Shown: positions 39,500 through 48,103, counted from the first letter of the stretch. The stretch is 64,000 nt of DNA from an uncultured archaeon (GCA_963787445.1 CAWBCT010000005.1:576001-640000), one strand, 5' to 3'. The notes: a model not told the origin generated them from the letters alone. A program made the numbers and translations.

Positions 39500-40195
39500 T
39501 TGGAGCTGAAAAACCTGCGCGAGAAACTGGACGTGACAAACCAGCGGATAATAACCAAGCTCAAGGACAGGTCACGGTTTCCCCTAAACCCGCCTGTTTA
39601 CATCGCGGACGCAATACCAATAAAAGGCAGGCCCGGAATCTCACTTCTGGAGTTTGCGCTGGAGGGGATAGAGGTCTACCACTCATCTTTGGGCAGGTAT
39701 GATTATCACGACCAGTATCCTGTTTTCTCAAGAAAGCTGCCGGGAAGCCTGGTCGAAAGAGTGACCCCCCCGACTTCACTCCAGGAGGTGTCAATAACCA
39801 TATCGACAGACCTGCTTTCCTACTACCAGCAGATGCTGCCCAGGCTATGCGATAAGAAAGAAGCTGACCCCACCACCTACGGCGAGACCGCCTACGTGGA
39901 TGCCGACACCCTGCAGCTCATACACGAGAGGATAAACAGCACCGGCCGCTATGTGGCTCAGGTCAAGCTTGAGCGGAACGGGAGCCTCAACGTCGACCAC
40001 TCTGATGAAAAGAAGATCAGGGACCTTCTGAGGGATGCGAAGAGGGAGGGTGAAGTGATAGAAGAGGCCAAAAAACTGGCAGCAATGCAGGGACTTGAGC
40101 CTAACCTGATCGGAGAAGTGATCGGCTGGGTCATAGACAAAACCCTCGAGGTGGAGGTCAAGTACATACAGAGGCTTGACGCCCCCAAAGCATAA
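39500..40195 (+). CDS. Chorismate mutase, eukaryote (ARO7/AroQ-beta) type
   Basis: Collinear with yeast ARO7 motifs: NLREKL, RSRF..NPPVY, SLLEFAL, GRYDY, YGETAYVD...LIHERI..GRYVAQVK, VIDKTLEVEVKYIQRL. Confidence 0.85.
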   Translation: MELKNLREKLDVTNQRIITKLKDRSRFPLNPPVYIADAIPIKGRPGISLLEFALEGIEVYHSSLGRYDYHDQYPVFSRKLPGSLVERVTPPTSLQEVSITISTDLLSYYQQMLPRLCDKKEADPTTYGETAYVDADTLQLIHERINSTGRYVAQVKLERNGSLNVDHSDEKKIRDLLRDAKREGEVIEEAKKLAAMQGLEPNLIGEVIGWVIDKTLEVEVKYIQRLDAPKA

Positions 40196-40609: not shown

Positions 40610-40921
40610 TCATCCTTCAAACTTCTTCTCATCCTTCCTAGCTCGCTCGTGCGCCTCCTTTAGGCTATGACCCTCGTTCTGGTACCTTATCTCCTGGAGC
40701 TCGTGGTAGGCTATCTTCATGGCGTGCCTCTTCCACCTATCAGATATCCAGATCTGGCCCAGCGGGATTCCGAGCTTGGCGGCGGCTTTGGGGGCGTAGC
40801 GCCTACCTTTGTAAACCACGTTGTAGCAGGCTATGTGCTCTCCGATCAGGCTGTGGGGCACGAAGACCACTTTGTAGCCAAGGCGCCTGAGCCCGCTTGC
40901 TATGGAGGATTTGGTGGGCAT
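40610..40921 (-). CDS. Small zincin-like protein (HExxE...AH)
   Basis: IWISD...IAYHELQE...SLKEAHERA. Confidence 0.6.
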   Translation of the reverse strand: MPTKSSIASGLRRLGYKVVFVPHSLIGEHIACYNVVYKGRRYAPKAAAKLGIPLGQIWISDRWKRHAMKIAYHELQEIRYQNEGHSLKEAHERARKDEKKFEG

Positions 40922-41031
40922 GGAATATAAATATCGTAAATCGGGTTCTAAAAGAATTATGTAACCACAAACTAAACCTATTTTTATCACAATGTTATTA
41001 AATTCTTACGTTCTAGTTTAAACTTGAGTAA

Positions 41032-42003
41032 ATGAAAGAATATCCACTAGATAAATTCCCTAATATAAATATGCGACCGGAAGTGGTTATTAAGCATAAA
41101 GAACATCTTGATGCACTCAAAGACGATATAATTGAGTATAGCAAAGTTGGCCATAGAGATACAATTATGTTTGATTGGCTACTCAGAGTTTTTGAGAATT
41201 TGGGTCTCTCAACAGTGAGAAAGGAATACTTAGATTCATTAGCTATAACAAAGACGCGGTTAGCTTTGTTTGTGGTATTGATTGATGATCCAGTCGACAA
41301 TATCAAAAAGCGTAACTTTAAACTTTTCGAAGAACTTCTCAAGATCCCATTTAATCCCGAGCAAATAGATAAATCTCAATTTAATGTTCATGATGTTGAA
41401 TATCTTGAATTTACAAAAAACTTGTGGACTGAGATCACAAACGAGATTACAAAATATCCTGATCATAAGAGATATAAAGAAGCCTTTGAATTTGATATCA
41501 AACAACTTCTTAATTCTATGAGCTATAGCCGATTTGTAAATACCTACCCTAATGCTATTAACTTGACTGAGAATGACGCTTACGTACATCATAGTATGAT
41601 AGTTTTAATAGAAATGGACATTGATCTGATGTGCTCGCAAGGATTTGATGAGCGTGAATTTGGAGCATTAAGAGAATTAGGTTACATCTCTCAAAAGATG
41701 GCGAAGATAGGTAATATTATAGGAACATATCCTCGAGAACTTATTGAATCAGATATGTCCAGTAGAGCAGTGGTAAAATTTCTGACAGATAACGGCGCAG
41801 ATTTTGGATTCAAATTAAATAAACTAATTAAAAAAGAAATGAGGTATCCCGAGTTCGAAAAAAACCTAACAGACGAATGGCAAAAGGAGTACTTACTAAC
41901 TATCGATTTATCAAAAAGAATAAAATCAATTAATACACAAGATTTCATAAAACAACTAGAATTCGTACAAAAAGCATACCAAATTAAAACTGACTATTGG
42001 TAA
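41032..42003 (+). CDS. Class I terpene-synthase/isoprenoid-synthase fold protein
   Basis: LIDDPVD (DDxxD) and KIGNIIGTYPRE (NSE/DTE-like) motifs; all-helical; AT-rich. Confidence 0.65.
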   Translation: MKEYPLDKFPNINMRPEVVIKHKEHLDALKDDIIEYSKVGHRDTIMFDWLLRVFENLGLSTVRKEYLDSLAITKTRLALFVVLIDDPVDNIKKRNFKLFEELLKIPFNPEQIDKSQFNVHDVEYLEFTKNLWTEITNEITKYPDHKRYKEAFEFDIKQLLNSMSYSRFVNTYPNAINLTENDAYVHHSMIVLIEMDIDLMCSQGFDEREFGALRELGYISQKMAKIGNIIGTYPRELIESDMSSRAVVKFLTDNGADFGFKLNKLIKKEMRYPEFEKNLTDEWQKEYLLTIDLSKRIKSINTQDFIKQLEFVQKAYQIKTDYW

Positions 42004-42022
42004 AATTTGTGCTGCTTAAATC

Positions 42023-42568
42023 TCATAATTGTTCTTCATAAAGAGACGGAAATCGTTCTTTCAGGTTTTTATTGCCATCAATAACTATCTTACAGACATT
42101 ATTACTATTAGCTTGGTATTCTACTTCTATAGCATCAAAATCTCTATCCGTAATGGCAGATATTAAACCCGCAATAATACCGCGTAACAAGTGATCTATA
42201 TTTCTATATTTTGTATTTTCAAATTCTTTTATTAAGAAAGAATCTTCTAAGATTAATGTCCCAGTGGGGATTGTATTAGCATCTTCGTACTTTACATTCC
42301 CATAACCATATAAGTTTATAGTATTACAAATCCAGTTTTTATCTGTTGACTGTGCAAACTCTGCTTTAAGATTTTGTTTGTATTCCAACATAGATTTTTT
42401 TGAAATTAAATAAAGTGTCTTTAATGACCCCAAATCATCATACGCTTTACTTAAATATGCAGTTATACTTTGTGGCGGAAATATCAGAACATCTTGTCCA
42501 TAAAGTGTTACTTTTCCATCTACAAATGTCATTTTTCTTGTTATCATCAACATCTCAAAAAAGTTCAT
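42023..42568 (-). CDS. V4R-domain protein (degenerate Zn motif)
   Basis: GKVTLYGQDVLIFP, LYGYG, HLLRGIIAGLIS, EVEYQANSNNVC. Confidence 0.75.
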   Translation of the reverse strand: MNFFEMLMITRKMTFVDGKVTLYGQDVLIFPPQSITAYLSKAYDDLGSLKTLYLISKKSMLEYKQNLKAEFAQSTDKNWICNTINLYGYGNVKYEDANTIPTGTLILEDSFLIKEFENTKYRNIDHLLRGIIAGLISAITDRDFDAIEVEYQANSNNVCKIVIDGNKNLKERFPSLYEEQL

Positions 42569-43134
42569 TCGATGTCACCAAACCTTTTTGCTGCTAATTC
42601 AGGAAAATTTTCAAATAATTCTTTTTTAGAACCCCAATAGTAAACGCATACGTCATTACCCGAACATATACACTTTGTTTCTATAACATCTATATCCATA
42701 TTGAATGTACCACTTGCAGATCCTGCAATAAGACCTTCAAAGATAAAATCAGAAGGTTCTTTTATCCCTTTATTTTTAAGATAATCATGCATCGGAAGAT
42801 CTTTTATATTCATAAATCCGCGTTTACCATTTTCATCTAAAAGTTGATATTTTACTAACCCCCAACCTCCGAAAGCACAATACTTAACCCATCTATCCAA
42901 AAAATCTTTAGGGGTTAGCATGTATTCCTTACCTAGTGGTCTAGAAAATTCTGCCATACCCTTTTTCATACACCCATACAATTCTCTTGCCTTTCTTGGC
43001 GTATTATTGATATCTATAGACAACATACCCACAAAATTTACTGGCAAAATCACTATCCGTTGTTTATCCATAGTTATTTTGCCAGGTTCTATATTAACTT
43101 CTTTAGCAAGCGAAAATTTTTCGAATATGTTCAT
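42565..43134 (-). CDS. V4R-domain protein
   Basis: GKITMDKQRIVILP, FGGWG, FEGLIAG, ETKCICSGNDVCVY. Confidence 0.85.
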   Translation of the reverse strand: MNIFEKFSLAKEVNIEPGKITMDKQRIVILPVNFVGMLSIDINNTPRKARELYGCMKKGMAEFSRPLGKEYMLTPKDFLDRWVKYCAFGGWGLVKYQLLDENGKRGFMNIKDLPMHDYLKNKGIKEPSDFIFEGLIAGSASGTFNMDIDVIETKCICSGNDVCVYYWGSKKELFENFPELAAKRFGDIE

Positions 43135-43210
43135 TAAATCGCCTTAACATCGTAATACGATATTACTTTATTAGAGCTAATAGTAGTTTTATTGGCTCTT
43201 GTTTACCATA

Positions 43211-43945
43211 TTATTTATAAACTTGTTCGGCAGGCTTTACAGACATACCTATCTTACCAAACTCCAAGTCATGTACATATTGGCTATGGTCTGTATTTCT
43301 CATTTTCAAGATTGATAAAGTTCTGCTTCTCCTTGCACCTATAAGTTGATTGTACATAACAACAAGACCGTCACACATGAACTCGCTAACACCATCTACT
43401 GTGAGGTGCTCCCCCCCATCTACTGAATCTGTTATTATCATATTTGTTGTAGTAAGATCACTTAATTTATTTATTACCAAATAAGTTATACGCTTTTCAG
43501 AATCACCAGTATAAACTGTTTTATTTCTAGACCCGAGATAACTAATTGGTATGGTGAATTGGTCTATATTTACTGAAAAAATCTCCAGACTATCAAAAAC
43601 TAATCTTTTTGCATGAGTAGTATTTACTGCATCCTCTATGATTTTAAAAAGATCAAGTTTAACTACATCCATTGGGATCGACAAAAACGTAATCTTACCT
43701 TGGCTTTCAAGACTATTCAAATCCCATCCAAATCTTTTTCCTTGTTCTTTCAGCATATCTGTATTAGATTCAAGAGATACATATAATCCATTTTCTCCAG
43801 CTAAAGCCCCACTGTAAAGATATTGCAACCCAAAAATGGTTTTACCAGTACCTGGTGCTCCAACCAGCAAGACATTGAAATTTTTTGGTACGCCCCCCTC
43901 TACAAGCTCATCGAAACCGGGAATGCCTGTCTTTACTCTTTCCAC
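43211..43945 (-). CDS. KaiC/RAD55-like ATPase (single domain)
   Basis: RVKTGIPGFDELVEGG, GAPGTGKT, RLVFDS, EFMCDG, LKMR. Confidence 0.92.
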   Translation of the reverse strand: MERVKTGIPGFDELVEGGVPKNFNVLLVGAPGTGKTIFGLQYLYSGALAGENGLYVSLESNTDMLKEQGKRFGWDLNSLESQGKITFLSIPMDVVKLDLFKIIEDAVNTTHAKRLVFDSLEIFSVNIDQFTIPISYLGSRNKTVYTGDSEKRITYLVINKLSDLTTTNMIITDSVDGGEHLTVDGVSEFMCDGLVVMYNQLIGARRSRTLSILKMRNTDHSQYVHDLEFGKIGMSVKPAEQVYK

Positions 43946-44076
43946 GTCAAAACCTCTAGCTAGTATCGGTATGGTATAGCAAACTATTTATGCATAACGC
44001 AGAAAACATAGTCACTTGCTGAAAGCAAAATTGTTATTGAATTATAAACCTTTATTATGATGTATTAATTGAGTTT

Positions 44077-45180
44077 ATGACAACTACAAAATACTCAACA
44101 CTATTTGAAGACCAAGCTTTTGGTATTCCAGGTTACATTTCTAAACAATTCCATGCTCTAGATAACAAAAAGTTCTTTATTAGAAATATATTCATACCAG
44201 AATCCTTTTTTGTAATACTTGAGCAGACCATAGTAGAAAACAAAGGAGACAAAAGAAAAAAGGAATTATACAGGATGGGAAAGCAATTTGGTTACCGATT
44301 TGCACTTCTTAATCGGTTTCCCAAAGGTAATATTAACAAAGTCACAATGCGTTCCGTGTTTGATTTCTTCCAAACAATCTACGCAAAGAAGATGACTACA
44401 TTAAATATAGATTCCCAATTGAAGATGGTTGAACTAGAACTTGATGAATTCATAGTAACTTCCAAAGATGATATGGGTTATATGCCTATTGGAGCCGGCG
44501 CAGGTGCATGGTGTTACTTAAATGGTGATTATAATCTTGATTGTAGCACCCAAAAATTATCGAAGGGTAAGCATGTACTTTTATGTGCTAATAAAAAGAT
44601 TCTTAAAGAACGGGGATTTGAAGTAATCGAATCTAAGCAAATGCCAGAAAGTATTGATTTTAAGAGCTATATGGGCCATAACTTGCCACAAAAAGGTATG
44701 TTCAAATCATCAAGTTTTAGCCAGCTGCTTAAAACTGGAATTGCTTCGTATACACCTGGAATAATAAAATTAGAAAAATCAAATGAAAGGTTAATAGTAC
44801 TTGAGATATCCATACTCTTTGATATAGAAAACACCTTTGATCAGAAGTTAATATCAGACTCTTCATATACGCCATTCTACAACATTGGACTTTCTCTAAA
44901 GGAAAAAGAAAAACCATACGATAGTCTCACCGAACTGCTTAGCGCCTTTGGATTTGGTATTGTACAGGTAACCGAAAAGAAAGATACGGTATCAGTCCTC
45001 TTTCATGGATATCCGTGGTTCTCAACAGAAACCGAGAAAACAAGTTTTGGTCTTATTAAAGGGGCTGTTCTTGGCTTCCTTAATGGTATTACTGAAAGAA
45101 AATATGAACTAAAATCTTTATCCTCAGAAGTTACGAATAACGTATTTGATGTATCCATGGAATTGGAAATCAAGGAGTAA
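44077..45180 (+). CDS. Tandem V4R-like domain protein
   Basis: Two V4R-like halves (RNIFIP...LYRMGKQFG; ERLIVLE...AFGFG...GAVLGFLNG). Confidence 0.6.
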   Translation: MTTTKYSTLFEDQAFGIPGYISKQFHALDNKKFFIRNIFIPESFFVILEQTIVENKGDKRKKELYRMGKQFGYRFALLNRFPKGNINKVTMRSVFDFFQTIYAKKMTTLNIDSQLKMVELELDEFIVTSKDDMGYMPIGAGAGAWCYLNGDYNLDCSTQKLSKGKHVLLCANKKILKERGFEVIESKQMPESIDFKSYMGHNLPQKGMFKSSSFSQLLKTGIASYTPGIIKLEKSNERLIVLEISILFDIENTFDQKLISDSSYTPFYNIGLSLKEKEKPYDSLTELLSAFGFGIVQVTEKKDTVSVLFHGYPWFSTETEKTSFGLIKGAVLGFLNGITERKYELKSLSSEVTNNVFDVSMELEIKE

Positions 45181-46498
45181 TCGATATCATCTCATCTCCT
45201 TCATGCAGGCTACGCACTGCATCTAACTTCCTGCAGCACATGAACCCCGTAATAATATTGGTTATGACCAGCCTTCTTGCCCTTAATCCCTTTATAAGCC
45301 TCATCTCTTCCATTGCCTTGTCAAGGTCAATGCCCGTGAAAACTGGCAGCAATAGCAAAGTCCCATCTGGCATACCGAATTCTCCCGAAATTATGTACTT
45401 GTTTACCGGATTCTCAGTTTCCTCAGTAATGCTGTTCCTTAGGGCGCTTCTGTGCTTGATAAACTCTGAATGGTTTATGTCCTCTAATAAGATGAGCGCA
45501 AAATACTTGATTGGCAGGTTTGCAAGGCTGATCGTAATCCTTCGTACAATGCCCTTGTCTACCAGCCTGTTGTAAGTATATCTCGCGCTGCCTGCCCCAA
45601 AGCGATTCTTTTCGTCTATCTCGGCAAAATCCATGCTCCCGTTGAAGTTAAGGTCCTTCAGGACCGCATGTTCCCTGTTGAGCAGCCTTGGCGACCCATC
45701 GCCGCGCTGAGCCTTGCCCCCTGCCTTACTCTTAAGAACCTCAAAGAACCCGTCTCTTAATGGTATAAAGCCATAGCCCATCGAGAACTGCGTAAGGTAG
45801 AACCTAAGGTTGCAGTCCGGGAAGAGCCTGTCCCTCAGCTCCGACGCCTGGGCTCTCATATCGCCATTTGCATCAAACAGGGCGTATACGAAGAGATCGT
45901 AGTCCCCTTGGGTCAGCAGCGCCAGCTGCACGCGGGGCTCAGCCTCAAGCTCCCTCTTCATGGTCCTGAGGTTGGGCACTTCATCCAGGAACTTGACCAT
46001 TATGACATACTCCACGTAGCCGAGCTTCCCTAGGTCCGGCTCGAGGATGTAGCTTATGCCGTACTTCCTCTCCAGGTTCCTCCTGTGGGCCTCCAGCGTG
46101 GCCGGCTTGAGCCCCATCTTCTTGGCCATCTCTGCCAGCGTTAGCCTGCCATCGGCGCTTAAAGCGGAGATTATGGCGTTCTCGTGCTCCCTTGAGTACT
46201 CTCTATGGCGGTACTCCCTCCGTTCCGTGTCCTTTCTTGGTTTGGCGCTGAACTCCCTTTCTACCAGAGCTCCTCCAAGCTCCGCGTCCCGCCTTATGCC
46301 CGGTATGAACAGGCCCTCGATCGTAATCCTCCCTATGTACCTCGAGATGCCCCTGACCTTCTTCCTCTCCTTGTCCCATTTGCTCGTAGCCTCGTAGACG
46401 TAGCAGTGCTCGTTGATTATCTTTATGCTGAGGTACCTGTCGCTGTTCTTCTTGAGCTCTTCGTAGGTGGTTTGGACTTTTTCTGGAAGCTGTTGCAT
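45170..46498 (-). CDS. Double Lrp/AsnC-type HTH regulator with an extra N-terminal domain
   Basis: LSADGRLTLAEMAKKMG HTH plus LGY...GDYDL RAM-like domain, repeated in the C-half; N-terminal YVYEATSKWDKERKKVR...YIGRI segment. Confidence 0.75.
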   Translation of the reverse strand: MQQLPEKVQTTYEELKKNSDRYLSIKIINEHCYVYEATSKWDKERKKVRGISRYIGRITIEGLFIPGIRRDAELGGALVEREFSAKPRKDTERREYRHREYSREHENAIISALSADGRLTLAEMAKKMGLKPATLEAHRRNLERKYGISYILEPDLGKLGYVEYVIMVKFLDEVPNLRTMKRELEAEPRVQLALLTQGDYDLFVYALFDANGDMRAQASELRDRLFPDCNLRFYLTQFSMGYGFIPLRDGFFEVLKSKAGGKAQRGDGSPRLLNREHAVLKDLNFNGSMDFAEIDEKNRFGAGSARYTYNRLVDKGIVRRITISLANLPIKYFALILLEDINHSEFIKHRSALRNSITEETENPVNKYIISGEFGMPDGTLLLLPVFTGIDLDKAMEEMRLIKGLRARRLVITNIITGFMCCRKLDAVRSLHEGDEMISITP

Positions 46499-46734: not shown

Positions 46735-47460
46735 ATGATAGAAATAAAAATTGGAAAAGGAACTTCGCAAGATGCAGAACGCTTAGTTGGTAGAGAAGCA
46801 TTTCCAATAAGAGAACGCTCAAGCAACGGCGCTAATGGAAGTCACAGTACCCTGCTAGTTCTGGAAAGGAGAACTGGGGCTCTCGCTGATTCTGCTCGAC
46901 CTTTGGCAGTCCTTCAAAGATCCGACGTACATAAGCTCACAGATACGCAGATGGAAAGGCTCGACAAGCTTTGGTCCTACAACATCTCCCACATCACGCG
47001 TAAACTCGTGTCAAGAGGAGATGCCCCGCAGATCAAGGCAGAACAACTTTATCCACTTGAGGCGATGTTGGGCAAGATAGATCTCGAGACCGCCAGGAGT
47101 TTTGAAGCAGAGTTCAAAAGATTCATGTCCATAATTCTGATCAAACCCGAAAACGTGAAAATTGTAGCACCTTCGAGGCCTGTAGACATGTATTGGCACT
47201 TGTTCGTACTAGACACGCGGGAATATCGTAAGTTCTGTGAGCAGGTGTTCGGAAGGTTCATAGATCATGTGCCGTCCAGTGACGCTAGAAGGCAGCATAC
47301 AAGGGACGCATACGTGAGCACGCTGGATGCATACAATAAACTTTTCGGAGTTCCTGACGGAAGAATATGGCCCAAGCTCAGGGTTGAGGGCGCTAATTGC
47401 GGGACGGGTTCTGGACATTGCAGCGGTGGCCCCGATTGTAATCAATGTAATGCAGGATGA
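46735..47460 (+). CDS. Glycine-rich-domain (GRDP/DUF1399-like) protein with Cys/Gly tail
   Basis: EFKRFM, APSRPVDMYWHLFVLDTREYRKFC, FIDHVP, TLDAYNKLFG, IWP. Confidence 0.75.
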   Translation: MIEIKIGKGTSQDAERLVGREAFPIRERSSNGANGSHSTLLVLERRTGALADSARPLAVLQRSDVHKLTDTQMERLDKLWSYNISHITRKLVSRGDAPQIKAEQLYPLEAMLGKIDLETARSFEAEFKRFMSIILIKPENVKIVAPSRPVDMYWHLFVLDTREYRKFCEQVFGRFIDHVPSSDARRQHTRDAYVSTLDAYNKLFGVPDGRIWPKLRVEGANCGTGSGHCSGGPDCNQCNAG

Positions 47461-47479
47461 TAGCGGTTAATAAGAGCAT

Positions 47480-48103
47480 ATGCCGTATGCACTAATTGGT
47501 AATAAAATGTCGGCAACTCGCGTGTCATTCAGATACTCATGGGTTTATGACCAGGTGTGGAAAAGGTTCTTACCCAAGAACTCGAAGGAAATGAATCAGT
47601 ACCCCACTCCGAATCAAGTGAAGAGTCAAATGCTGGTGAAAGAGAAAGCTTGGCGAATACATGAGAAGGTAATAGTCAATGCCATACCTTCAATAACTGC
47701 TCTTAAATGGCAAGAAAAAGAAATCCGTTGCTACGTTGTGGGATTTTGCAGGCCTTTCTCAGATCCCTTGACCATGATGCCGTACAAGTCTGATAAGATG
47801 TTCGTTGATGTGCTCACCCACGAGCTAATTCATCAGATACAAGTACAGAATTTAGACATGTCAAGAAACTTCAGAAAATGGTTAATTAAAAGATATCCAA
47901 ACGAGTCAACAATAACTATTAATCATGTAGCATTATACGCAATTTACGAAACGCTTTACCTAAAACTCTTCGGTAAGACGAGGTTGAAAGAGAGTTTGTC
48001 GAAGGTAAAGCTGCAAGAGTACTTAAGGGCGCTCGAGATAGTAAATCAAGAAGGATGTAGCGAGATTCTCTCCCGATTCATTAATTATGGGGCAAGTGAG
48101 TAA
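47480..48103 (+). CDS. HExxH putative metallopeptidase
   Basis: PFSDPLT and LTHELIH, with a downstream H. Confidence 0.6.
   Translation: MPYALIGNKMSATRVSFRYSWVYDQVWKRFLPKNSKEMNQYPTPNQVKSQMLVKEKAWRIHEKVIVNAIPSITALKWQEKEIRCYVVGFCRPFSDPLTMMPYKSDKMFVDVLTHELIHQIQVQNLDMSRNFRKWLIKRYPNESTITINHVALYAIYETLYLKLFGKTRLKESLSKVKLQEYLRALEIVNQEGCSEILSRFINYGASE

Follow-up and report, generated by a model that had tools for sequence, protein, structure and literature searches.

A low-GC island in an uncultured archaeon sets a terpene-synthase-like gene beside a KaiC-V4R cassette tied to prenyl diphosphate-using enzymes

The DNA analysed here, called the window, is a stretch of 64,000 nucleotides (nt) from an uncultured archaeon (GCA_963787445.1, CAWBCT010000005.1:576001-640000). 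Between 40,900 and 45,180 the window contains a sharp island of low guanine-plus-cytosine (GC) content with five genes, named A to E in their order on the DNA, and a sixth gene, F, lies at the far border of the island. Gene A encodes a predicted terpene-synthase-like enzyme, genes B and C encode proteins with a V4R domain, and gene D encodes a KaiC-like ATPase. Across the lineage, the KaiC and V4R genes were found to form a cassette associated with prenyl diphosphate-using enzymes, among which A is one exchangeable partner. The island and the features of genes A to D are given below, with positions counted from the first letter of the window.

40900..45180 (no strand): low-GC accessory island; GC 0.33 against 0.53, junctions crossed by contigs, no flanking repeats, tRNA or integrase
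41032..42003 (+ strand): gene A, 323 amino acids (aa), putative divergent class I terpene-synthase-like enzyme, from its homologue family, the Pfam matches of its relatives and its motifs
41284..41298 (+ strand): DDPVD, residues 85-89 of A, predicted Asp-rich metal-binding motif, from conservation in alignment A1 and its alignment to the DDxxD of 7bzb
41713..41739 (+ strand): NIIGTYPRE, residues 228-236 of A, predicted second metal-binding motif of the NSE type, from conservation and from being in register with the NSE motif of solved terpene synthases
42023..42568 (- strand): gene B, 181 aa, V4R-domain protein and paralogue of C, from the Pfam matches of orthologues, hhalign and a profile match to MJ1460
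42565..43134 (- strand): gene C, 189 aa, V4R-domain protein with the signature E152-x2-C155-x7-C163, from the Pfam matches of orthologues and the conserved signature
43211..43945 (- strand): gene D, 244 aa, single-domain KaiC-like ATPase, from PF06745, with Walker A (GAPGTGKT) at 43838-43861 and Walker B at 43589-43603

The island had a mean GC of 0.331 and the remainder of the window one of 0.529; no other stretch of 4.18 kb in the 64 kb had a GC as low. When GC was followed in sliding segments of 500 nt, it stayed at 0.50-0.56 up to 40,999, fell to 0.30-0.36 over 41,000-44,999 and was 0.54 again by 45,500; a finer profile placed the borders at ~40,900 and ~45,180. Genes A and B converge across a gap of 19 nt, the reading frames of B and C share 4 nt, 76 nt separate C from D, and D and E diverge across 131 nt. 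Because B and C overlap and C and D lie so close together, D-C-B reads as one operon. An earlier note, made by a model from the sequence alone, had described an abrupt AT-rich block of five genes and, in it, a DDxxD/NSE-like enzyme converging on a KaiC-V4R-V4R operon. Both descriptions were borne out by the GC profile, by the five open reading frames (ORFs) lying as it had placed them, and by the DDPVD and NIIGTYPRE motifs of an enzyme gene that ends 19 nt from the operon.

The gene A protein alone gave no match to Pfam, NCBIfam or PDB sequences, and the shallow alignment A1 produced only chance matches against the PDB. An exhaustive HMMER search with A returned a family of 541 representative clusters at 50% identity (E up to 1e-3). 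The family occurs in small archaeal genomes labelled Micrarchaeota, in bacteria of the candidate phyla radiation (CPR) and in haloarchaea, and every source name encountered was "hypothetical protein". When 85 single-domain members were scanned singly, PF19086 (Terpene_syn_C_2) matched 45 of them (best E 2.3e-7) and PF03936 matched 16, and no further Pfam family was matched by more than one member. The profile of these 85 members (alignment A2) was compared with all PDB sequences and gave five matches with weak E values of 0.012 to 1.3, namely 7bzb (Terpenoid synthase 18), 9rs5, 9rrz and 9rs4 (each entered as "Terpene synthase") and 7e4n (Sat1646, which we take to be a terpene synthase). In the comparison with PDB terpene synthases, both metal-binding motifs of the family aligned in register.

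These two motifs were the most conserved positions of the A family; D85, D86, N228, R235 and E236 were invariant, and D89 and T232 were conserved at 90% or more, with the first motif read from alignment A1. The DDPVD of gene A conforms to the Asp-rich DDxxD motif of class I terpene synthases. The second motif, N228-x3-T232-x3-E236, starts 143 residues past D85 and conforms to the NSE/DTE pattern (N/D)Dxx(S/T)xxxE in a variant form, with Ile in place of Asp at the second position. The language-model features of P0021, a homologue 55% identical to A, lay beside terpene synthase clusters at 0.96, which served as a lead only. From the Pfam matches of the members, the PDB matches of the profile, the conserved motifs and the language-model features, the A family is placed among the class I terpene synthases. 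This family-level evidence supported the assignment that the earlier note had proposed for A.

The proteins B and C scored 18.2 and 25.2 bits, respectively, with the V4R model (PF02830), both under the Pfam cut-off of 31 bits. All 14 B/C orthologues scanned matched V4R (best E 2.5e-9), and the orthologues in G101, a genome of the same genus as the window's, scored 34.4 and 42.6 bits, over the cut-off. In hhalign, B and C matched each other at 99.8%, and the B/C profile matched the solved V4R protein MJ1460 (PDB 2osd) with an E value of 2.5e-5 across the conserved C-terminal motif. The pattern GWG...D...G...G...E-x2-C-x7-C was invariant across 23 V4R proteins of the cassette; the window's B has a Tyr at the first Cys position of E-x2-C-x7-C. 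Both proteins were judged to carry the V4R domain, and we regard them as paralogous V4R proteins. Protein D matched PF06745 with 169.9 bits (cut-off 26.6 bits, E 7e-50), and the residues of its Walker A (G29, G32 and K35) and Walker B (V116 and D118) were invariant in 23 KaiC orthologues, in keeping with an ATPase of the KaiC/RecA type. With the models of circadian KaiC proper, D scored 98.6 against 546 bits (TIGR02655) and 124.8 against 408 bits (NF006799), and it has a single domain; on both counts D is KaiC-like and not a clock KaiC. The Pfam scans detected no DNA-binding, export or membrane domain in B, C or D. Where the earlier note had counted three V4R proteins with a KaiC-like ATPase, B, C and D were as described, and the third V4R candidate, E, was only loosely V4R-like.

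The conservation of this arrangement was followed in a scan of a genome collection for the A family, which gave 47 loci, nine close (L002-L010) and 38 distant (L011-L048). The A orthologues of the close loci were 52-59% identical to A. The genes A, B and C adjoin in six of these nine loci (L003, L004, L006, L007, L009 and L010), and a KaiC gene is also present in five; the stretch of L009 ends before KaiC could show. In L006 and L010 the KaiC gene is found upstream of A on the same strand, and the flanking genes vary from locus to locus. The shifted position of KaiC and the varying flanks argue against the simple inheritance of a frozen block.

The reverse question, what adjoins KaiC-V4R, was asked in 401 evenly sampled genomes of the phylum, the window's own included. 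V4R genes of the B/C type were found in 55 of the 401 and are thus far commoner than A. In G101, which has no A, the genes run as KaiC, V4R, V4R, an unknown protein of 191 aa, a cis-prenyltransferase (PF01255, E 1.9e-51), a homologue of E (46% identical) and a homologue of F (42%), and the slot of A is filled there by a different isoprenoid enzyme. Twenty further V4R loci of the same phylum were then taken by order of score and not by neighbour; A-bearing loci already identified, a pseudogene and a genome flagged unpublished were passed over. A KaiC-like gene adjoined the V4R gene or was one gene off in all 20; in L112 the V4R gene had been lost to the ORF filter, and the adjacency was taken from the coordinates of the V4R search. 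A prenyltransferase of the UbiA family was present in eight of the 20 loci (four confirmed by Pfam with E 1e-27 to 5e-37 and four assigned by phmmer clustering and a hidden Markov model, HMM), and a cis-prenyltransferase in five (four confirmed by Pfam). The UbiA-bearing loci came from at least four families of the phylum.

The position of these enzymes was strict. Among the 13 prenyl enzymes, 12 were one gene from the KaiC-V4R core and one was two genes away, and none was found in the 150 ORF slots at a distance of three or more genes. This positional control was made within the same fetched DNA, with HMMs built from the adjoining enzymes themselves. Because UbiA or cis-prenyltransferase genes occurred in 13 of the 20 loci, and always within two genes of the core, the KaiC-V4R cassette is tied to enzymes that use prenyl diphosphates. 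In a second phylum, that of the genome with L016, V4R genes were found in 72 of 301 genomes, and KaiC was within 1.5 kb in none of the 30 best loci. Thus, among the genomes sampled, the arrangement of enzyme, KaiC and V4R is specific to the window's lineage and is not general to archaea.

A few loci of this survey had features of their own. One locus of the second phylum, L125 (G620:C57:5065-8553), contains three tandem V4R genes beside a cis-prenyltransferase and no KaiC, a hint that V4R was linked to prenyl enzymes before it became associated with KaiC. L103 (G241:C33:1-15000) has an expanded cassette within 9 kb, in which four V4R genes in tandem and another, divergent one are accompanied by three KaiC-like genes, a FIST-domain sensor protein and a GHMP kinase; in L117, too, KaiC-V4R was paired with a FIST protein. 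In G101, the V4R genes are separated from the cis-prenyltransferase by the gene of a protein of ~190-220 aa with no Pfam family (L067:9705-10280 (+); L116:5805-6476 (+)); this protein has a homologue at a second locus of the cis-prenyltransferase type and may be a further component. The window's genome encodes three UbiA proteins, one cis-prenyltransferase and two polyprenyl synthases, all outside the island, and it has no KaiC-V4R cassette other than that next to A. About 15 kb past the end of the window, two tandem UbiA genes are followed by a polyprenyl synthase gene (G000:C5:655016-657539); these genes seem to form the genome's own cluster for isoprenoid lipids and are a possible source of substrate for A.

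Beyond the close loci, the A family was found in other company. Twenty long members were scanned against Pfam, and the A domain was C-terminal every time. The fused part was a module of the type of 1-deoxy-D-xylulose 5-phosphate (DXP) synthase or transketolase in 11 of the 20, PilZ in three (one of them also with REC) and 3,4-dihydroxy-2-butanone 4-phosphate (DHBP) synthase in one, and it was unrecognised in five. One long member, P0101, carries a full DXP synthase (E 1.8e-88). Examples of the fusions are P0101, P0127, P0169 and others; P0075, P0058 and P0062; and P0068. In the transketolase-type fusions mostly just the C-terminal transketolase domain scored well, and the N-terminal module may be degenerate. 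In 11 of the 38 distant loci (L011-L019, L028 and L030), the gene that directly follows A, in the same orientation, encodes a histidine kinase. Four of these kinases were confirmed by Pfam, with the order HisKA_7TM-HisKA-HATPase_c in the bacterial or CPR loci L011, L015 and L017 and a PAS kinase in L016, and the remaining ones were assigned by BLAST clustering. Bacteria, both CPR and others, have such pairs of A and kinase, as do two Natronomonas loci and one metagenome-assembled genome (MAG) of Methanohalobium.

Upstream of A, a polyprenyl diphosphate synthase was found in six of the 38 distant loci, one of them confirmed by Pfam. The row of polyprenyl synthase, A-like gene and sensor histidine kinase has the look of a separate and undescribed unit of three genes. 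The polyprenyl synthase and histidine kinase neighbours, together with the fusions, indicate that the A family is tied to the supply of isoprenoid precursors and, repeatedly, to proteins of signal transduction. Tandem duplicates of A were seen in haloarchaeal genomes (L026, L031, L039, L041 and L042), with up to three adjoining copies in L041 (Natrialba chahannaoensis).

The genome with the window has 1.05 Mb in 19 contigs and is estimated to be 82% complete; the named homologues of the island genes come from Micrarchaeota, and these labels suggest that the genome belongs there too. Both GC junctions of the island were crossed with 0 mismatches by public soil-metagenome contigs (X2 over 40720-41084 and 44524-45470, and X1 over 45044-45396), which shows that the island is physically joined to its flanks and is no assembly chimera; the bridging runs all came from one study, possibly that of the source sample, and independence from the assembly is not given. 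The module had a low GC in other genomes as well, with 0.33-0.38 for the four genes of L010 (surroundings ~0.5), 0.36-0.39 for A, B and C of L004 (a genome flagged unpublished) and 0.30-0.32 for the V4R genes of G101, and it was host-like, at ~0.5, in L007. Gene A was present in eight of the 401 genomes, from two families of the phylum only, and in none of the five other genomes of the window's genus. The low GC of the module elsewhere and this patchy distribution point to lateral movement of the island from low-GC donors. The nearest homologue of gene A is 66% identical, so no donor has been sampled.

The island itself carried no marks of a mobile element, since no trustworthy flanking direct repeats, no adjoining tRNA and no integrase were found. 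An exact repeat of 15 nt (at 40072 and 45339) was taken as chance, as it is inside genes of host GC. An inverted repeat of 18 nt, 94% complementary, was seen between 41920-41937, at the 3' end of gene A, and 44061-44078, across the start codon of gene E; in AT-rich DNA it may be chance. The comparison with an empty site was uninformative, the genomes of the same genus being too divergent in DNA and the relatives of the flanking aminoacyl-tRNA-synthetase-like protein only 25-32% identical. A reading of the island as a defence island was also tried and set aside, as the PADLOC models gave no match to A, B, C or E and only weak P-loop matches to D (best E 1.9e-4).

We propose that the V4R proteins bind an isoprenoid and that the KaiC-like ATPase transduces that state, so that the island would hold an isoprenoid sensing or handling cassette with A as the coupled enzyme; we hold this reading with somewhat more confidence than doubt. 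Protein A most likely ionises a prenyl diphosphate, such as farnesyl diphosphate (FPP) or geranylgeranyl diphosphate (GGPP), and the genome's own polyprenyl synthases could supply that substrate. The ligand of the V4R pair, B and C, would be a hydrophobic isoprenoid, either the substrate or the product of the adjoining enzyme, as we infer from the V4R family and from the enzymes next to it. Through a presumed contact between V4R and KaiC, the occupancy of V4R would be passed to D, acting as a nucleotide-dependent switch, and the switch would in turn act on the pathway, with F, the winged-helix regulator, as a possible intermediary; which way control runs and what F does in it are conjectural. 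What the data show are the gene identities, the family placement of A, the positional enrichment, and an adjacency, tolerant of rearrangement, with three enzyme families that have a prenyl diphosphate substrate in common. The firmest part of the proposal is the coupling to isoprenoid metabolism, and the ligand and the direction of control are its weakest parts.

Several observations weigh against this proposal. The window's own A protein had no match to a terpene synthase model at E up to 1, and its assignment is transitive, by way of its homologues. The close loci L002, L005 and L008, from MAGs labelled Nitrosopumilaceae, have A without V4R or KaiC. L004 belongs to the genome flagged unpublished (G029), and the linkage of A, B and C falls to five of eight loci when it is left out. 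Among the distant loci, none of the 38 had a V4R neighbour and two had a KaiC-like one. Thus, A stands without V4R and KaiC in three close loci and without V4R in all distant ones, and it does not need the cassette. The earlier note had named a lack of V4R/KaiC linkage among homologues as refuting its idea; for the close subfamily this refutation does not apply, as six of the nine loci have the linkage, which was nearly absent from the distant loci. Synteny was counted in genomes that are related, so that the counts do not represent independent events, and the ORFs of the other genomes were called by a script of our own. From the side of the cassette, seven of the 20 further KaiC-V4R loci had no recognised prenyl enzyme and were neighboured by methyltransferases, FIST proteins, DUF2666 and unknowns; one of the seven, L103, has the GHMP kinase beside its four tandem V4R genes, and the other six had other or unknown neighbours.

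The same neighbourhoods could be read without any signalling, if the V4R proteins were soluble carriers or chaperones of prenyl substrates or products and KaiC powered their loading and release. The partner enzymes come from three families that share a hydrophobic substrate class, and the V4R arrays of one to four copies, with four in tandem in L103, are as expected for stoichiometric carriers. For the V4R protein BchJ, the role of a substrate carrier has been proposed in place of that of a reductase, and Bet3, whose fold is related, binds a lipid chain. However, single-domain KaiC-like ATPases are treated as switches and not as lipid-handling motors, helix-turn-helix (HTH) regulators of the F type recur nearby in seven loci, which suits a regulatory circuit, and a conserved contact of V4R with three kinds of enzyme seems demanding. 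We consider a carrier role unlikely, though a serious candidate.

The pairing of the same core with UbiA (8/20) and cis-prenyltransferases (5/20) also bears on the LuxI/LuxR-like logic of the earlier note. Spelled out, A would make a diffusible terpenoid, V4R would sense the returning signal and KaiC would relay it, in quorum-sensing-like or host-symbiont signalling. UbiA proteins and cis-prenyltransferases ordinarily serve the synthesis of membrane lipids and carrier lipids, and their polyprenyl products are membrane-bound and not diffusible signals. Because the cassette pairs equally with these enzymes, the sensing or handling of a metabolite is favoured over a diffusible signal. The genes for a synthase and for binding proteins do adjoin in the island, the wider A family is paired with sensors, with a histidine kinase in 11 of the 38 distant loci, PilZ or REC-PilZ fusions occur in three of the 20 long members, and an accessory, patchy island (8/401 genomes and 0/5 of the same genus) suits a niche trait. 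Against this, the fusions with REC and PilZ mark the enzyme as a regulated output and not as the source of a sensed signal, and B, C and D have no domain in the Pfam scans for binding DNA, for export or for the membrane. A diffusible signal in the manner of LuxI and LuxR is, in our view, rather improbable. Adjacency with no function, in which a laterally transferred block would simply contain A next to a functionally unrelated KaiC-V4R, fits the compositional signature of recent transfer and the restriction of A-bearing loci to two families of the phylum, where shared ancestry could explain part of the synteny. It is very improbable, given that the flanks differ while the core stays together, that KaiC has another place with respect to A in L006 and L010, that two other families of prenyl enzymes take the slot in four or more families of the phylum, and that the prenyl enzymes are so strictly enriched in position.

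A wider version of the isoprenoid-sensing proposal can also be drawn, to which we give little credence at present. In it, the KaiC-V4R cassettes would be the isoprenoid sensors of DPANN-type archaea; the terpenoid made by A, a laterally acquired terpene synthase in this version, would be bound by B and C, its presence would set the nucleotide or phosphorylation state of KaiC and be read out through F, and circuits of terpenoid and histidine kinase in CPR bacteria would run in parallel. If this were true, it would provide the first ligand class for any archaeal KaiC-like "hub"; an archaeon would have a signalling circuit built on terpenoids, which might connect a small symbiont with its host, and terpenoid signalling would be shared among ultra-small prokaryotes.

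The remaining features at and beyond the divergent end of the cassette were as follows.

43946..44076 (no strand): divergent intergenic region between D and E, 131 nt, presumed promoters, from reading of the sequence
44077..45180 (+ strand): gene E, 367 aa, loosely V4R-like accessory gene that travels with F, from the profile and an Atlas look-up of a homologue
45170..46498 (- strand): gene F, 442 aa, putative regulator with two winged helix-turn-helix domains of the Lrp/AsnC type, from HTH_24 (E 1.3e-6) and NCBIfam matches of the LysM/Lrp type

Gene E had been described earlier as a tandem V4R protein. No Pfam family was found in E, nor in any of the 11 members of its family that were scanned. 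When its halves were compared with the B/C profile, the C-terminal half matched at 39% probability, the N-terminal half gave no match, and the two halves were unlike each other. The Atlas model of P0043, a protein 44% identical to E, resembled over its full length (template modelling score, TM, 0.58) a cluster in which 97% of the members have V4R, and the N-terminal half of the E homologue alone also matched V4R-containing clusters in the same look-up. The description of E as tandem V4R-like is thus plausible and not established, the structural look-up speaking for it and the Pfam and profile comparisons against it. As a member of the module, E is divergent beside D in the window, but it is absent from all nine close A loci and adjoins F both in the window and in G101; it is outside the conserved core of the cassette.

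Gene F has a host-like GC of 0.52. Homologues of F were found near KaiC-V4R in seven loci besides the window (L003, L067, L099, L100, L102, L106 and L112), and in L003 the homologue adjoins KaiC, which makes F a candidate for the output of the cassette. Past F, at 46735-48103 of the window, an ORF of 241 aa with a tail rich in Cys and Gly (…CGTGSGHCSGGPDCNQCNAG) and an ORF of 207 aa with an HExxH motif (HELIH) were noticed; both gave weak Pfam matches below threshold only, and the local GC dips to 0.36-0.39.

The genes described here belong to known domain families in an undescribed and testable functional association. To our knowledge, KaiC-like ATPases abound in archaea, and none of those with V4R neighbours has been given a ligand or a pathway. 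Full-text literature searches returned no title or abstract that connects prenyl-diphosphate enzymes with V4R or KaiC, none that connects the histidine kinases of CPR bacteria with terpene synthases, and nothing specific, as judged by title and abstract, on terpene synthases in DPANN archaea; most subscription journals were outside the scope of these searches. The present analysis offers a hypothesis that can be tested at the bench, in which the input of KaiC-V4R is an isoprenoid and three classes of enzyme are named. It also adds a large unannotated family of terpene-synthase-like proteins (541 clusters at 50% identity) to the picture of archaeal terpenes, and an accessory, laterally moving isoprenoid cassette in genomes of ~1 Mb may bear on the membrane or on the interaction with a host.

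The nearest characterised enzymes are the first three archaeal terpene synthases with experimental activity, described in a preprint (bioRxiv 10.1101/2024.01.29.577750) according to which terpene cyclisation had been unreported in archaea earlier and predicted terpene synthases are widespread in them. Its beta-bisabolol synthase, A0A5E4I9B1, has DDXXD at residue 67 and NTLNTWPRE at residue 221. Both A and A0A5E4I9B1 are proteins of ~300 aa with a single domain and no standard Pfam annotation, and both have a DDxxD followed, ~140-155 residues on, by an NSE motif with an unusual ending, T-[W/Y]-P-R-E (NIIGTYPRE and NTLNTWPRE, respectively). The exact NTLNTWPRE motif was not found in 210 fetched proteins, and the looser pattern N-x3-[ST]-[WYF]-x-R-E occurred 182 times among them, 11 of these in the unrelated E family. 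The likeness of A to the beta-bisabolol synthase is suggestive and no proof of a common family. The words Micrarchaeota, DPANN, KaiC and V4R are absent from the main text of the preprint, and its supplementary per-genome lists may include the A family.

Gene D and its neighbours recall the archaeal KaiC hubs in having a single-domain KaiC-like ATPase beside the gene of a small-molecule-binding protein, with a logic of input, hub and output. Makarova, Galperin and Koonin are said to have presented KaiC-like ATPases, in mBio in 2017, as hubs of archaeal signal transduction with small-molecule-binding neighbours. The literature searched gave no statement that ties such hubs to isoprenoid enzymes, and a candidate class of ligand can be proposed here from gene neighbourhoods. 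Among V4R proteins, the E-x2-C-x7-C signature of the cassette resembles what we take to be the zinc site of MopR. A cluster of three conserved Cys in V4R is described in an article that names the phenol sensors PoxR and MopR (PMC5847659). In contrast to XylR, DmpR, MopR and PoxR, the proteins B and C stand alone, with no AAA+ or DNA-binding module and with a separate KaiC-like ATPase as partner, and the ligand implied for them is an isoprenoid and not an aromatic compound.

The likeness of the island to LuxI/LuxR is that the gene of a small-molecule-forming enzyme stands beside the genes of small-molecule-binding proteins. There is no homology between the two systems, the binding proteins of the island are not transcription factors, and the cassette also pairs with prenyltransferases of the lipid type. 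The distant A loci of CPR and other bacteria share with bacterial terpene operons the pair of polyprenyl synthase and terpene synthase (6/38), but differ from them in the sensor histidine kinase that directly follows, which is of the seven-transmembrane (7TM) type in three bacterial or CPR examples. In the window, unlike such operons, the polyprenyl synthases are encoded elsewhere in the genome and the partner of the terpene-synthase-like gene is KaiC-V4R.

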